IMG/VR virus record: IMGVR_UViG_2541047428_000017
DNA length: 5,204 nt
Reading direction: 5' to 3' (one strand)
From: a virus
Lineage: Duplodnaviria > Heunggongvirae > Uroviricota > Caudoviricetes
Shown here piece after piece: positions 1,720-5,204 of the stretch (position 1 is its first letter; every line of letters begins with the position of its first letter). The notes beneath the pieces were generated by a model. It saw nothing but the letters and a program-made list of their open reading frames with translations, was not told the DNA's origin and searched no databases. Position numbers and translations under genes: made by a program.

Positions 1720-2005
1720 CACCACACTTATCTGCCCTGACTCTCTTTTGCGGGCTTTTTATTACAGGAAAGACACCGGACAGTGAAATGTTAAATGCCT
1801 CACAATTCAGGCAGTTGACTGTTGCCTGACATGCTGAGCGTTTGTTAAAAAAATCCTGCATGATGAATCCCCCTGAGCGGCGGGGCATAATGACAGATGT
1901 TTGGTTGCGTATTGTATAGGCAAGTTGCGGATTCTGTCTGGTCATTGCAGAATTCACCGGGAGGCACCCGGCATCATGCTGTATACAGAGATTAGGCATA
2001 TATCC

Positions 2006-2031
2006 AGGCTTCTCATCGCAGGAGCCTTTTT
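2006..2031 (+). terminator. candidate intrinsic terminator (+ strand)
   Basis: 7-bp stem AGGCTTC/GGAGCCT (2006-2012 with 2021-2027, one G-U pair), 8-nt loop, then T5 (2027-2031). Confidence 0.35.
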
Positions 2032-2037
2032 ACATGC

Positions 2038-2063
2038 AAAAAAAAGCCCGAGTGGGTTCGGGC
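2038..2063 (-). terminator. candidate intrinsic terminator (- strand)
   Basis: GCCCGA/TCGGGC stem (2046-2051 with 2058-2063), 6-nt loop, flanked on the + strand by A8 (2038-2045), which is a U8 tract after the hairpin on the - strand. Confidence 0.45.
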
Positions 2064-2123
2064 AACAGCATGAGATACTTGCATTGTCATTTTTATCGTG
2101 TGGATTTTAACCAGGGTTTATAA

Positions 2124-2242: not shown

Positions 2243-4180
2243 ATGACATTTAAACATTATGATGTTGTCAGGGCGGCGTCGCCGTCAGACCTTGCGGAAA
2301 AGCTGACACACAAACTGAAAGAGGGCTGGCAGCCGTTTGGTAGTCCTGTGGCCATAACCCCTTATACCCTGATGCAGGCGATTGCCGCGGAGGGGGATGT
2401 GACCACGCCAGTGGTTGTGCCCGGCACGGGGGATGGTGGCTATCCGGGAGTGGTCACCACGGAGCCAGATTATTACTACGTTATTCCACTGGCCGGGCAG
2501 TCGAACGGCATGGCTTACGGTGAGGGGCTTCCTCTGCCGCAGACATATGACCGTCCTGACCCGCGTATAAAGCAACTGGCTCGTCGCAGCACAGTGACGC
2601 CGGATGGCGCTCCCTGTAAATATAACGACATTATTCCGGCAGACCACTGTCTGCATGATGTACAGGACATGAGCCGTCTTAACCATCCGAAAGCTGACCT
2701 GTCGAAAGGTCAGTACGGAACCGTGGGGCAGGGGCTGCATATTGCCAAAAAGCTGCTGCCGTTTATACCGGCGAATGCGGGTATTCTTCTGGTTCCGTGC
2801 TGCCGTGGTGGTTCAGCTTTCACCACCGGGGCAGATGGAACATACAGTGACGTGACCGGTGCCTCAGAGAGTTCTACCCGCTGGGGTGTGGGCAGGCCGC
2901 TGTATAAGGATCTCATCGGTCGTACAAAAGCCGCGCTGGCAAAGAACCCGAAAAATGTGCTGCTTGCCGTGGTGTGGATGCAGGGGGAATTTGACTTTGA
3001 CGGAACGCCAGCAAATCACACAGCCCGTTTTACAGAAGTAGTGGAACAATATCGTACGGACCTTGCAGATATGGTGGGACAGTGCGCTGGTGGTTCTGCT
3101 GACGGTGTTCCCTGGATATGTGGAGACACAACTTATTTCTGGAAGCAGAAGAGCGAATCCACTTACCAGACGGTGTACGGCAGTTACAAAAACAAAACGG
3201 AAAAGAATATTCACTTTGTGCCGTTCATGACCGATGAGAACGGAGCAAATGTCCCGACGAACAAACCGGAAGAAGACCCGGATATTCCGGCATCAGGATA
3301 TTACGGTGCGGCCTCCCGGACGTCGGCAAACTGGACGTCAGCAGACCGTGCGAGCCATTTCAGCTCATGGGCACGCAGGGGGATTATTTCTGACCGTCTT
3401 GCCTCAGCGATTCTTCTCCATGCAGGACGGACGGCTGAACTGGTGGGTGGGGAACAGGTTGTGATGCCGCCGGATGAGAAGCCGTCACCGGACACACCAT
3501 CAACACCGTCAACGGACGGGAAATCAGTGACAACGCTGCTTTATTACCGTGCAACAGAGTCAGGTGGTTTACTGAATCCGCAGGGATGGGGAGCTGAAGG
3601 AGGGCGTGCATTGGTAGTTGATGATGCAGGTGCTGCAGGAGGTAAGGCGCTGAGGTGGACCAAACAGACAGGAAGTTCCTCGTGGTTTATGCAGCATGAT
3701 GCCGGTAATGGCGCAGACCTGCTGGAGAAGGGCGGGCTTATCAGTTGTCGTTTTAAAGTTGATGGCACACTGACAGCTAATCAGTACGCACTGGCGCTGT
3801 ACTGGCCGGTTTCTTCACTGCCTCAGGGTGTCACACTGGAAGGTAATGCCGGTCATAACCTGCTGGCGTCGTTTTACGTACAGAGCGATGCCACAGACCT
3901 TAATGTGATGTACCACAAGGGAAATGCTGGTCAGAACACGAAGCTGGGGTCATTCGGCGCATTTGATAACGAATGGCATACGCTGGGCTTCCGTTTTGCC
4001 GGTAACAACAGTATTGAGGTGACGCCGGTCATTGATGGTAAGGACGGGACGCCGTTCATGCTGTCACAGTCACCGGTCGGCACGTTTACGGCAGACAAAT
4101 TGCGCGTGACCGATATCACTAGCGGTGCGACATATCCGGTGCTGATTGAAAGTATAACAGTGGAAGTGAATAACCCGTAA
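2243..4180 (+). CDS. nanS-p: prophage NanS-p-type sialate O-acetylesterase (645 aa): N-terminal DUF1737-like region, SGNH/SASA esterase domain, Pro/Ser/Thr linker, C-terminal beta-rich domain
   Basis: ATG at 2243 with GGGAGG SD 4-9 nt upstream (the listed TTG at 2186 is less likely). GQSN catalytic-serine motif of the sialate O-acetylesterase family at nt 2495-2506 (Ser87). PST-rich linker PPDEKPSPDTPSTPSTDG at about nt 3466-3520. Length and position (after phage tRNAs, before the lysis genes) match the gene found downstream of stx in Stx phages. Confidence 0.88.
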   Translation: MTFKHYDVVRAASPSDLAEKLTHKLKEGWQPFGSPVAITPYTLMQAIAAEGDVTTPVVVPGTGDGGYPGVVTTEPDYYYVIPLAGQSNGMAYGEGLPLPQTYDRPDPRIKQLARRSTVTPDGAPCKYNDIIPADHCLHDVQDMSRLNHPKADLSKGQYGTVGQGLHIAKKLLPFIPANAGILLVPCCRGGSAFTTGADGTYSDVTGASESSTRWGVGRPLYKDLIGRTKAALAKNPKNVLLAVVWMQGEFDFDGTPANHTARFTEVVEQYRTDLADMVGQCAGGSADGVPWICGDTTYFWKQKSESTYQTVYGSYKNKTEKNIHFVPFMTDENGANVPTNKPEEDPDIPASGYYGAASRTSANWTSADRASHFSSWARRGIISDRLASAILLHAGRTAELVGGEQVVMPPDEKPSPDTPSTPSTDGKSVTTLLYYRATESGGLLNPQGWGAEGGRALVVDDAGAAGGKALRWTKQTGSSSWFMQHDAGNGADLLEKGGLISCRFKVDGTLTANQYALALYWPVSSLPQGVTLEGNAGHNLLASFYVQSDATDLNVMYHKGNAGQNTKLGSFGAFDNEWHTLGFRFAGNNSIEVTPVIDGKDGTPFMLSQSPVGTFTADKLRVTDITSGATYPVLIESITVEVNNP

Positions 4181-4193
4181 GCAGGAAAAAAAG

Positions 4194-4233
4194 GCCGCCG
4201 GGGCAGGGAAAACAAGGAGCCAGAACCGGCGGC
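4194..4233 (-). terminator. weak terminator-like hairpin, readable on the - strand
   Basis: 8-bp GC stem GCCGCCGG/CCGGCGGC (4194-4201 with 4226-4233) with a long 24-nt loop; the A7 run at 4186-4192 is a U-tract after the hairpin on the - strand. The long loop makes it doubtful. Confidence 0.2.
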
Positions 4234-4327
4234 AAATGTCGTTATATCCAAAGCAAAACATGCAGGACACTTTTTTAACCAACAGGTATTAACGATGTCA
4301 ACACCATATCAATAACCGGGAGGGATA

Positions 4328-4510
4328 ATGAGATTTGTACAGCTTATTTTATTGTATTTCTGCACGGTGGTGTGCACGTTATATCTGGTAAGTGGCGGGT
4401 ATAAGGTTATCCGGAACTATATACGCAAAAAGATTGATGCCGCGGCGGCGGAAAAAATCAGCGCCAGCCAGTCAGCCGGAACAAAACCCGAAGAGCCTCT
4501 CATTTCGTAG
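4328..4510 (+). CDS. hypothetical small protein (60 aa) with a hydrophobic N-terminal segment, possible single-pass membrane protein
   Basis: ATG at 4328 with GGGAGGG SD (4318-4324); N-terminal stretch LILLYFCTVVCTLYLV followed by a charged, Ala-rich tail; sits between the esterase and the holin. Confidence 0.45.
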   Translation: MRFVQLILLYFCTVVCTLYLVSGGYKVIRNYIRKKIDAAAAEKISASQSAGTKPEEPLIS

Positions 4511-4547
4511 CAACTTTCTTAACAACACCTTTCAACGAGAAAATCCC

Positions 4548-4817
4548 ATGTCAGAAATAAAATCTCTGGTCACTGCTGAAGCAGTGAAGGACGTCCTGCG
4601 CTCTGAAGAAGTCAGAAGCGCACTGAAACAGCAACTCCGCCAGAATCTTGAGGCGCGTCTTGATGCTGAAGTGGATGCCATTCTGGATGAGCTGCTGGGG
4701 GGACCGGCTGCTCCTGAGCCTGAAGACGGCGCGGGTGACAGTGCTGTTTCAGATGGCGTTGTGTCTCAGCCTGACGGTAGCAGTGAGCCTCAGCCTGGCG
4801 GCGAAATGATGATGTAA
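4548..4817 (+). CDS. hypothetical acidic small protein (89 aa)
   Basis: ATG at 4548 with only a weak GAGA SD. The frame is also open from GTG 4392 and ATG 4437, but those starts lack an SD and overlap the previous ORF. Acidic, Pro/Gly-rich C-terminus ending EMMM. Confidence 0.4.
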   Translation: MSEIKSLVTAEAVKDVLRSEEVRSALKQQLRQNLEARLDAEVDAILDELLGGPAAPEPEDGAGDSAVSDGVVSQPDGSSEPQPGGEMMM

Positions 4818-4892
4818 CCATACGCAGGGGCTGTCGGTGTGAGCTGATGCCCCTCCTGTTGTTGTGAGCTTCCGGATTGCGGGAGACGGGGT

Positions 4893-5108
4893 ATGTACCA
4901 GATGGAAAAAATCACAACGGGTGTGTCATACACCACGTCAGCGGTGGGGACGGGATACTGGTTACTGCAGCTGCTGGACAAAGTCTCTCCGTCCCAGTGG
5001 GTGGCGATAGGTGTGCTGGGGAGTCTGCTGTTTGGCCTGCTGACGTATCTGACTAACCTGTATTTCAAAATCAGAGAGGACCGTCGTAAGGCGGCGCGGG
5101 GAGAGTAA
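4893..5108 (+). CDS. S: S21-type class II holin (pinholin), 71 aa
   Basis: GGGAGA SD 7-12 nt upstream of ATG 4893. Two predicted transmembrane segments ([16 protein letters not shown] and [23 protein letters not shown]) and charged tail [13 protein letters not shown], close to phage 21 S as I remember it. Met1 and Met4 (MYQM) form a possible dual start. Confidence 0.85.
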
Positions 5109-5112
5109 AGCG

Positions 5113-5204
5113 ATGAAGAAAAAATACGAACTGGTTGTTAAAGGGATAAATAATTACCCGGATAAGATTACTGTTACTGTGGCACTGGAAATTGGTGGGT
5201 ATCC
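5113..5204 (+). CDS. 5' end of a downstream gene (first 30 codons; truncated by window end), product unknown
   Basis: ATG at 5113 with GGAGAG SD at -13 to -8, starting 4 nt after the holin stop. N-terminus MKKKYELVVKGINNYPDKITVTVALEIGGY is hydrophilic, not a Gly/Ala-rich SAR segment. Confidence 0.5.
   Translation, partial: MKKKYELVVKGINNYPDKITVTVALEIGGY

Follow-up and report, generated by a model that had tools for sequence, protein, structure and literature searches.

Does a 60-codon open reading frame (ORF) lying near the holin gene of a lambdoid prophage encode a protein, and would such a protein take part in the lysis of the host cell? The question was raised by a 5,204-nucleotide stretch of viral DNA (IMG/VR record IMGVR_UViG_2541047428_000017; hereafter the window), in which an earlier note, made from the sequence without database searches, had proposed an uncharacterised small membrane-protein gene between an esterase and a holin. 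We found that positions 4328-4510 are a genuine protein-coding gene under purifying selection, belonging to the DUF1378 family. Gene neighbourhoods, protein architecture and analogy with known lysis proteins further lead us to propose, at roughly even confidence, that DUF1378 is a late-expressed accessory lysis factor that would act in the inner membrane.

Coding status and family of the 4328-4510 reading frame

The gene and its translation signal are as follows.

4328-4510, plus strand: DUF1378 family gene, 60 amino acids and a stop codon (ATG to TAG), identified from Pfam, PHROG, RefSeq and the ratio of nonsynonymous to synonymous substitution rates (dN/dS)
4318-4324, plus strand: Shine-Dalgarno sequence GGGAGGG, 3 nt upstream of the ATG, read from the sequence

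The encoded protein, MRFVQLILLYFCTVVCTLYLVSGGYKVIRNYIRKKIDAAAAEKISASQSAGTKPEEPLIS, matches Pfam DUF1378 (PF07125) with a score of 135.7 bits, where the cut-off is 25 (E 5.8e-40), and with residues 1-59 aligned to profile positions 1-59 of 59. It also matches PHROG 494, a family listed with function unknown (E 1.7e-35), and at a 100% identical locus RefSeq annotates a 'DUF1378 family protein' (WP_001213059.1). Its size (60 amino acids, for a family of about 59 residues) and its occurrence in enterobacterial genomes and phages are those of the family, and we saw no difference from Pfam DUF1378 and PHROG 494 in length, hosts or prophage setting. The earlier note had recognised no family and called the protein uncharacterised; the latter stands as far as function is concerned, but the family has a name and the ORF is already catalogued and annotated as a member of a domain-of-unknown-function family, so the feature itself is known. 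A literature search on domain names and old locus tags returned no functional study of DUF1378, the one relevant paper merely listing the domain. New relative to the literature searched is the comparative pattern that ties DUF1378 to lysis cassettes of Enterobacterales, together with its pairing with DUF826. No significant match to the protein was found among solved structures, NCBIfam or defence-system profiles, and within PHROGs and Pfam it showed no similarity to any annotated lysis family.

Selection was analysed on 84 loci, which reduced to 26 distinct DNA alleles; 25 of these were used, the Escherichia ruysiae copy, decayed by a deletion and a frameshift, being left out. All 25 have an ATG start and an intact reading frame. 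Mean dN/dS by pairwise Nei-Gojobori comparison was 0.15, with dS reaching saturation (above 1.5); between the window allele and those of Shiga toxin (Stx) phages, dS was 1.1-2.0 and dN 0.18-0.26. When differences were pooled, the ratio of nonsynonymous to synonymous proportions (pN/pS) was 0.24 in the DUF1378 frame, versus values of 1.6 and 1.9 for the two remaining frames; the contrast between frames was present separately in codons 1-21, 22-39 and 40-59. Because the Pfam match is full-length, dN/dS is 0.15 and selection is confined to this frame, the result lies far beyond chance. Conservation of the frame at homologous loci, a check that the earlier note had put forward, revealed no loss apart from the decayed E. 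ruysiae copy. The Shine-Dalgarno stretch is unchanged in 31 loci sharing this upstream sequence, and two further loci differ by one base and keep GGGAGGG. It is strong in the window allele, whereas other alleles have weaker, purine-rich versions, e.g. GGAGATGAATA or ACGGTAAGAAAT.

A longer frame overlaps the gene (4392-4817, 141 amino acids, GTG start) and is an upstream extension of the neighbouring DUF826 gene; it could be argued that this is the true coding sequence and that the 60-residue ORF is mis-called. Annotation records lend this some standing. The 933W reference record (L159, NC_000924.1) gives at 3308-3754 a 148-residue 'hypothetical protein' that is the extended DUF826 frame, and here, as in some other records, the DUF1378 ORF is omitted; PHROG 8301 (139 positions) covers such long calls and appears to collect over-long versions of DUF826, and one call of 141 residues in our protein set (P0185) is of the same kind. 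Upstream of the DUF826 ATG, however, pN/pS is 1.2-11 in the alternative frames versus 0.15-0.26 in the DUF1378 frame, DUF826 homologues elsewhere begin at the methionine of MSEIK/MPEIK, and RefSeq now annotates both short genes. We conclude from the substitution pattern of the overlapping frames that the extension is noncoding and the 60-residue ORF coding; frame-specific substitution analysis rules out 4392-4817 as a real gene, and we give the mis-call almost no credence. Older reference annotations, e.g. that of 933W, overlook the DUF1378 gene and call an unselected longer frame.

A word-indexed search of 5.8 billion proteins returned 132 DUF1378 clusters, and all those with a source name come from Escherichia or Shigella. 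An exhaustive HMMER profile scan of 1.84 billion representative proteins yielded only 39 that reached E <= 0.001, in many cases fragments. Members of named origin belong to Escherichia, Shigella, Klebsiella/Raoultella, Pantoea, Erwinia tracheiphila, Mangrovibacter and Cedecea, all of them Enterobacterales, and two loci were confirmed in a collection holding one genome per species (185,579 species). Among deposited phage genomes DUF1378 is present in 309 of 50,697 records, nearly all of Stx or related E. coli phages.

Architecture of the DUF1378 protein

Three regions can be distinguished along the protein.

4334-4399, plus strand: transmembrane helix, residues 3-24 (FVQLILLYFCTVVCTLYLVSGG), from hydropathy, flanking charges, AlphaFold and conservation
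4400-4474, plus strand: juxtamembrane helix, basic and amphipathic, residues 25-49 (YKVIRNYIRKKIDAAAAEKISASQS), with a predicted cytoplasmic location, from charge, hydrophobic moment and AlphaFold
4475-4507, plus strand: variable, probably disordered C-terminal tail, residues 50-60, from low model confidence and variation between members

The earlier description, a strong Shine-Dalgarno sequence followed by one hydrophobic N-terminal helix and a Lys- and Ala-rich remainder, proved accurate, and the Pfam match, selection analysis, hydropathy and AlphaFold bear out a small membrane-protein gene. Residues 3-24 form the sole hydrophobic segment (19-residue Kyte-Doolittle mean up to 2.09); residues 25-60 are hydrophilic and include 6 Ala, 5 Lys and 5 Ile. 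The N-terminal flank consists of two residues with a charge of +1, the second of which is usually Thr in the rest of the family, and the 13 residues past the helix (25-37) carry a net charge of +4, the whole 36-residue cytoplasmic part about +3. By the positive-inside rule we infer a bitopic inner-membrane protein with its N-terminus out and C-terminus in, of which two residues are predicted to be periplasmic. The hydrophobic moment peaks at about 0.5 in 18-residue windows covering residues 16-39. AlphaFold2, run on a 21-sequence alignment, predicted one continuous helix over residues 2-49 with a mean predicted local distance difference test score (pLDDT) of 71; pLDDT was 85-87 over residues 1-20 and below 50 for residues 51-60.

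Conservation was measured in 133 distinct core sequences plus 32 representatives sharing less than 80% identity. The transmembrane helix proved to be the part conserved best, and the positions that stand out as conserved are L9, Y10, F11, C/S12, V15, C/S16, L18, L20, S/A22, G23, G24, Y/W25, I28 and R29, with R29 nearly invariant, and the family-wide conserved core is therefore the transmembrane helix together with a GG(Y/W)xxIR motif. Family members are variable past about residue 40, and their C-terminal tails differ in length and sequence. A conserved unit made up of the transmembrane helix and its cytoplasmic exit would be unusual for a mere anchor, which suggests that the protein makes contacts within the membrane.

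Gene neighbourhoods and a candidate role in lysis

Context strengthens the link with lysis that the earlier note had surmised, the function itself being what we infer from it: distant DUF1378 members stand at the end of holin-endolysin-spanin cassettes. These proteins, of 50-91 residues, share homology with the E. coli group (hhalign probability 99.7%), the longer ones having an Ala/Glu/Lys-rich helical extension. In 36 loci, representing 32 distinct proteins, the gene lies directly downstream of the holin, endolysin and Rz/Rz1 genes, and for 26 of these 32 the spanin stop codon and the DUF1378 ATG share bases (ATGA), an overlap that suggests translational coupling with the spanin genes. The genes that follow DUF1378 in these loci are variable. 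The same post-spanin arrangement is found in the deposited phages BUCT709 ('Stenotrophomonas') and EKP1 ('Elizabethkingia'). The records assigned to Stenotrophomonas maltophilia (L085, OM816835.1) and Elizabethkingia anophelis (L160, OM284015.1) carry an enterobacterial-type pinholin, SAR endolysin and Rz/Rz1 along with DUF1378; E. coli prophages encode endolysins very similar to theirs, and the host assignments look doubtful.

The lysis systems in question are largely of one mechanistic type. Nearly all endolysins of the distant group open with one basic residue or two, after which comes a weakly hydrophobic stretch rich in Ala and Gly, the signature of signal-arrest-release (SAR) endolysins. 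Three different sequence families are represented among them, and the accompanying holins are two-helix pinholin types. The window prophage has the same combination of pinholin and SAR endolysin, the latter beginning MNAKIRYGLSAAVLALIAAGAPAP. A recognised holin or holin-like gene is already present at every locus; the architecture of DUF1378 is itself holin-compatible, and its gene is not adjacent to that of the endolysin. Between the endolysin and Rz, two loci of the distant group encode a two-helix DUF7940 protein of 68-87 residues (L089, 4186-4449; L090, 4271-4477), which matches a PHROG annotated as holin, even in L090 with its lambda-type holin.

Proximity to Rz/Rz1 raises the possibility that DUF1378 is a partner of the spanins, binding the transmembrane segment of the inner-membrane spanin (i-spanin) Rz and modulating the final disruption of the outer membrane. 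The i-spanin gene is the constant immediate neighbour in the distant members, upstream and overlapping in 26 of 32 and downstream in L092, where DUF1378 lies immediately 5' of an Rz-like gene. A position at the end of the cassette by itself implies an Rz neighbour, however, and in the window, as in all E. coli Stx-type loci, DUF1378 precedes the holin gene and is separated from Rz by 1-3 kb. We know of no spanin regulator that faces the cytoplasm, and the likelihood of this explanation seems to us slim.

In the E. coli lineage the gene has a different set of neighbours, which in the window are the following.

2243-4180, plus strand: gene for a nanS-p-type sialate O-acetylesterase (DUF1737, SASA and DUF6645 domains), from Pfam, the RefSeq coding sequence and synteny; the usual upstream neighbour in the E. 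coli lineage
4548-4817, plus strand: DUF826 gene, encoding an acidic (net charge -12), soluble protein of 89 residues with a helical N-terminal half (Pfam PF05696, E 1.2e-34); the usual downstream partner
4893-5108, plus strand: gene for an S21-type class II holin (pinholin) of 71 residues with dual starts at Met1 and Met4 (Pfam Phage_holin_2_1, E 1e-32; RefSeq 'class II holin family protein')
5113-5204, plus strand: start of a DUF1327/YdfR-family gene, cut by the window end (RefSeq at the identical locus; DUF1327, E 5.4e-46 on the full protein of that locus, L001)

The location between esterase and holin given in the earlier note thus holds in outline, except that the holin gene is not adjacent, the DUF826 gene (4548-4817) intervening. 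DUF1378 and DUF826 are 37 nt apart, DUF826 and the holin gene 75 nt. Nearly all of 80 IMG/VR loci from E. coli and Shigella lambdoid phages have the same order (nanS-p, ~150 nt, DUF1378, 37-40 nt, DUF826, ~78 nt, S21-type holin), which is kept despite identities falling to 53% for nanS-p and 48% for DUF826. DUF826 is present in 307 phage records versus 309 for DUF1378, with the same breakdown by organism, an almost one-to-one co-occurrence. In 17 loci from Mu-like prophages nanS-p, DUF1378 and DUF826 lie between the gin invertase gene and com-mom, or a com-like gene and a cytosine methyltransferase gene. Within the sequence examined there, no holin gene was found downstream of the trio; DUF1378 is still under purifying selection in this group (pN/pS 0.18, dS up to 1.4). 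Two examples (L084, 2152-7289; L135, 851-5789) have the trio inserted as one block, and since the block sits in Mu-like prophages, the esterase cassette has moved between unrelated phage types.

This joint movement of the three genes between lambdoid and Mu-like prophages, together with the near one-to-one co-occurrence of DUF1378 and DUF826 in deposited phages, would fit a role for DUF1378 as a membrane anchor for DUF826. The two would then serve a late function other than lysis in a three-gene cassette, such as localising or servicing the nanS-p esterase, or virion assembly. The complementary charges, +4 on the juxtamembrane helix versus -12 on DUF826, point the same way. Yet most distant members occur without nanS-p and DUF826 and are placed after Rz/Rz1, and for this reason we regard DUF1378 as a unit in its own right, constantly associated with lysis cassettes, and an anchoring role as decidedly unlikely. 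Two distant loci (L090/L091) once more have a DUF826 gene (Pfam E 2.6e-15) downstream of DUF1378, after Rz. Apparent DUF1378-DUF826 fusions (P0115, P0130, P0268) were considered as evidence of interaction and set aside as frameshifted or truncated gene calls. The idea that the long tail of the distant members is a fused DUF826 domain was unsupported (hhalign probability 1%, E 0.05). Another O157 prophage with an identical DUF1378 (L031, 2970-4695) has nanS-p in two fragments and DUF826 cut after 52 residues; an ORF resembling the C-terminal DUF6645 domain of nanS-p follows the truncated DUF826.

How the gene is expressed bears on two further explanations. A crude consensus scan of 4000-5204 revealed no sigma-70-like promoter, and the same interval contained four short, weak terminator-like hairpins, three of them on the minus strand, none of which flanks the ORF on its own strand; a weak one lies on the minus strand at 4479-4464. 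Rfam matched no RNA family in the interval between nanS-p and the holin gene (4181-4892). Because DUF1378 lacks a detectable promoter or terminator of its own, the simplest reading is that it would be transcribed from the Q-dependent late promoter together with the holin, SAR endolysin and spanin genes. Past nanS-p, at 4194-4233, there is a stable hairpin with an 8-bp G+C-rich stem (GCCGCCGG...CCGGCGGC) and a 24-nt loop. The 160-nt region around it folds better than shuffled sequences (z = -2.8), and it has no U-tract and so is not a typical terminator.

These signals weigh on the notion that DUF1378 is a small membrane toxin, either a Hok-like type I toxin or a hole former of its own akin to a holin, that kills or depolarises the cell. 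The size, single cysteine-containing hydrophobic helix and charged C-terminus are typical of small membrane toxins and holins, and a hokD gene is located elsewhere in the same prophage. However, no antisense promoter, convincing terminator or RNA family (4181-4892) was found, the ribosome-binding site is strong, open and inside a late operon, and the loci already carry a dedicated holin, making a toxin highly improbable.

The other explanation is that DUF1378 is a moron, an inner-membrane protein for lysogenic conversion or superinfection exclusion that might, for example, block the entry of phage DNA, the borders of lysis genes being merely permissive insertion sites. Several observations speak for it: the accessory positions away from holin genes (in Mu-like prophages at gin/com-mom, in Cedecea after tail-fibre genes and in L093 near DUF551), the nature of nanS-p as an accessory cargo gene itself, the dispensability of DUF1378 in related phages and the maintenance of selection where no holin gene lies downstream. 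Set against these are the failure of the crude consensus scans to reveal a promoter or terminator belonging to the gene, the overlap of spanin stop and DUF1378 start, seen for 26 of the 32 distant proteins and characteristic of a gene that belongs to an operon, and the lack of any match to known defence-system proteins. With about two predicted periplasmic residues, moreover, the protein would make no contact on that side with incoming phage parts. We regard a moron as unlikely.

Several results also count against an accessory lysis factor. The argument for it draws on gene neighbourhood and architecture, and the flanks of lambdoid lysis cassettes are classic moron slots, so that proximity by itself is weak evidence. 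DUF1378 is not always near lysis genes, as its gin/com-mom position in Mu-like prophages illustrates; in Cedecea neteri it stands by itself with tail-fibre genes on one side and a Dam methylase gene on the other, and in L093 it lies beside DUF551-type genes. Two plaque-forming lambdoid phages, mEp237 and HK225, whose Rz is ~46-48% identical to class-B Rz, gave no DUF1378 match, and DUF1378 is therefore not generally required for lysis. Among the loci that do have the gene, L090/L091 combine it with a lambda-type holin and a soluble lysozyme and L089 with a soluble PF11860 muramidase, so the mechanism cannot be strictly specific to SAR endolysins. Finally, a one-sided conservation of the transmembrane helix, as expected of a single binding face, was not significant (P = 0.41).

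With these points weighed, the accessory lysis factor is the reading we favour, 'accessory' because the protein is not generally essential. DUF1378 would be a non-essential inner-membrane factor tuning the timing or efficiency of the holin/endolysin step, with its conserved transmembrane helix contacting the membrane-embedded stretches of pinholin, SAR endolysin or Rz i-spanin; action at the spanin step would be less likely than at the holin/endolysin step. In the E. coli lineage the basic cytoplasmic helix (+4) may dock the acidic DUF826 (-12), and the pair could then form a membrane-tethered anionic cytoplasmic module with a layout like that of the Mu releasin. The effect could be either to speed up lysis or to delay it. 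In Shiga-toxin phages both toxin and phage leave the cell through phage lysis, and a shift in lysis timing would therefore shift toxin release. The gene lies in the Stx-type late operon, a few hundred bases from the holin gene, and is present in hundreds of sequenced Stx phages.

The remainder of the locus places the gene in its genome. Over its entire length the window shares 99.9% identity with a prophage in E. coli O157:H7 strain PV15-279; it represents the late region of a lambdoid prophage that is of the Stx-phage type and has no stx. Its genes run in the order DNA methyltransferase, two tRNAs, STnc100-like small RNA (sRNA), AgvB-like sRNA, nanS-p, DUF1378, DUF826, holin and DUF1327/YdfR, and past the window end come the SAR endolysin interrupted by IS1203, an antirepressor and Rz. 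The holin begins MYQMEK with Met1 and Met4, a dual start of the kind known for the S21 antiholin/holin pair. The DUF1327/YdfR gene (L001, 9933-10277) lies between the holin and SAR endolysin genes, an unusual spot in a lysis cassette that is shared by 13 related loci. Since IS1203 interrupts the SAR endolysin (L001, 10328-12174), the PV15-279 prophage is probably unable to lyse its host on its own.

Further upstream, the DNA methyltransferase gene (389-1446) is split into ORFs at 389-1111 and 1090-1446 by a 1-nt deletion in an A-run near 1070, by comparison with the intact 352-residue coding sequence of NZ_AP018488.1, and is either a pseudogene or the result of a sequencing error. The tRNA at 1487-1562 has the anticodon CAT and is called tRNA-Met by ARAGORN and tRNA-Ile by RefSeq; a lysidine-modified Ile tRNA is the probable identity. 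Next in line, at 1643-1719, is a tRNA-Arg (TCT). Between the tRNAs and nanS-p, STnc100 gives a strong match (175 bits, 1829-2037, plus strand), directly followed by a match to the anti-sRNA AgvB (2039-2098, minus strand) at 56.6 bits, equal to the gathering score, with AsxR second best.

Comparison with known lysis and exclusion proteins

Small single-helix proteins in or beside lysis cassettes that bind the holin and alter lysis timing have precedents in T4 RI, Gp5 of mycobacteriophage Ms6 and XhlA of PBSX. They belong to other families and mostly have other topologies than DUF1378; the functional domain of T4 RI, for example, is periplasmic. On the side of exclusion, HK97 gp15 is a small prophage inner-membrane protein encoded at an accessory position and expressed from the prophage with its own signals, whereas DUF1378 has no detectable signals of its own and, as judged by the stop/start overlap, would be coupled to the spanins in the distant members.

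The closest mechanistic parallels come from phages Mu and LambdaSo. The Mu releasin gp25 (DUF2730, PF10805) has 99 residues, an N-out/C-in topology, four periplasmic residues and an anionic cytoplasmic domain of ~70 residues (PMC9239132). It is needed for the release of a SAR endolysin, and its gene lies just 3' of the spanin genes; the positional criterion used for releasins is a gene within five genes downstream of the endolysin. DUF1378 resembles it in being small, with an N-terminal transmembrane helix, a predicted N-out/C-in topology, almost nothing in the periplasm and a cytoplasmic C-terminal part, and in lying near spanin genes in phages with SAR endolysins, the distant members directly after Rz/Rz1. 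As to position, the window gene is upstream of the holin gene and 36 loci of distant members have it downstream of the endolysin.

The likeness has its limits, two of which tell against our proposal. As a releasin homologue DUF1378 was rejected, with no Pfam match to DUF2730 at E <= 0.1 and an hhalign probability of 0.2%. Further, its cytoplasmic part is basic (36 residues, about +3), whereas that of releasin is anionic; in a DUF1378 system the anionic part would have to come from DUF826. DUF1378 is also shorter (60 versus 99 residues), and the phages encoding it have a holin, unlike Mu.

Lcc6 of LambdaSo (SO_4795) has 65 residues, with a helix at 5-22 and a 43-residue cytoplasmic tail (bioRxiv 10.1101/2024.01.23.576932). 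In a pinholin/SAR-endolysin system it is strictly needed for lysis, and its action is at the holin level (bioRxiv 10.1101/2024.01.23.576932). DUF1378 is near-identical in size and layout (60 residues, helix at 3-24, 36-residue tail), and it too is found in a lambdoid phage with pinholin, SAR endolysin and Rz/Rz1. Lcc6 is encoded in an accessory cluster away from the lysis cassette, and so are some copies of DUF1378. The two differ in that Lcc6 is strictly required whereas DUF1378 is absent from related functional phages; their likeness is one of layout, and none of the named DUF1378 family members is a Shewanella protein.

These parallels allow a broader, tentative claim, possible in our view although we lean against it, that DUF1378 would be an unrecognised class of lysis component: a membrane-tethered timer of pinholin/SAR-endolysin lysis that is equivalent to releasin and Lcc6 and unrelated to them in sequence, which would partner DUF826 in the Stx-type phages of E. 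coli and, in Klebsiella-type prophages, act alone as a longer protein. On this reading it would also, in Shiga-toxin phages, share in setting the timing and amount of toxin and phage release. The studies of Mu releasin and LambdaSo Lcc6 show that holin, endolysin and spanin are not always the complete lysis machinery, the step lacking in each case being provided by a small inner-membrane protein with a cytoplasmic tail. DUF1378 has the same layout and is a clearly delimited candidate, easy to test, for an additional lysis component in Stx-type phages of medical relevance.

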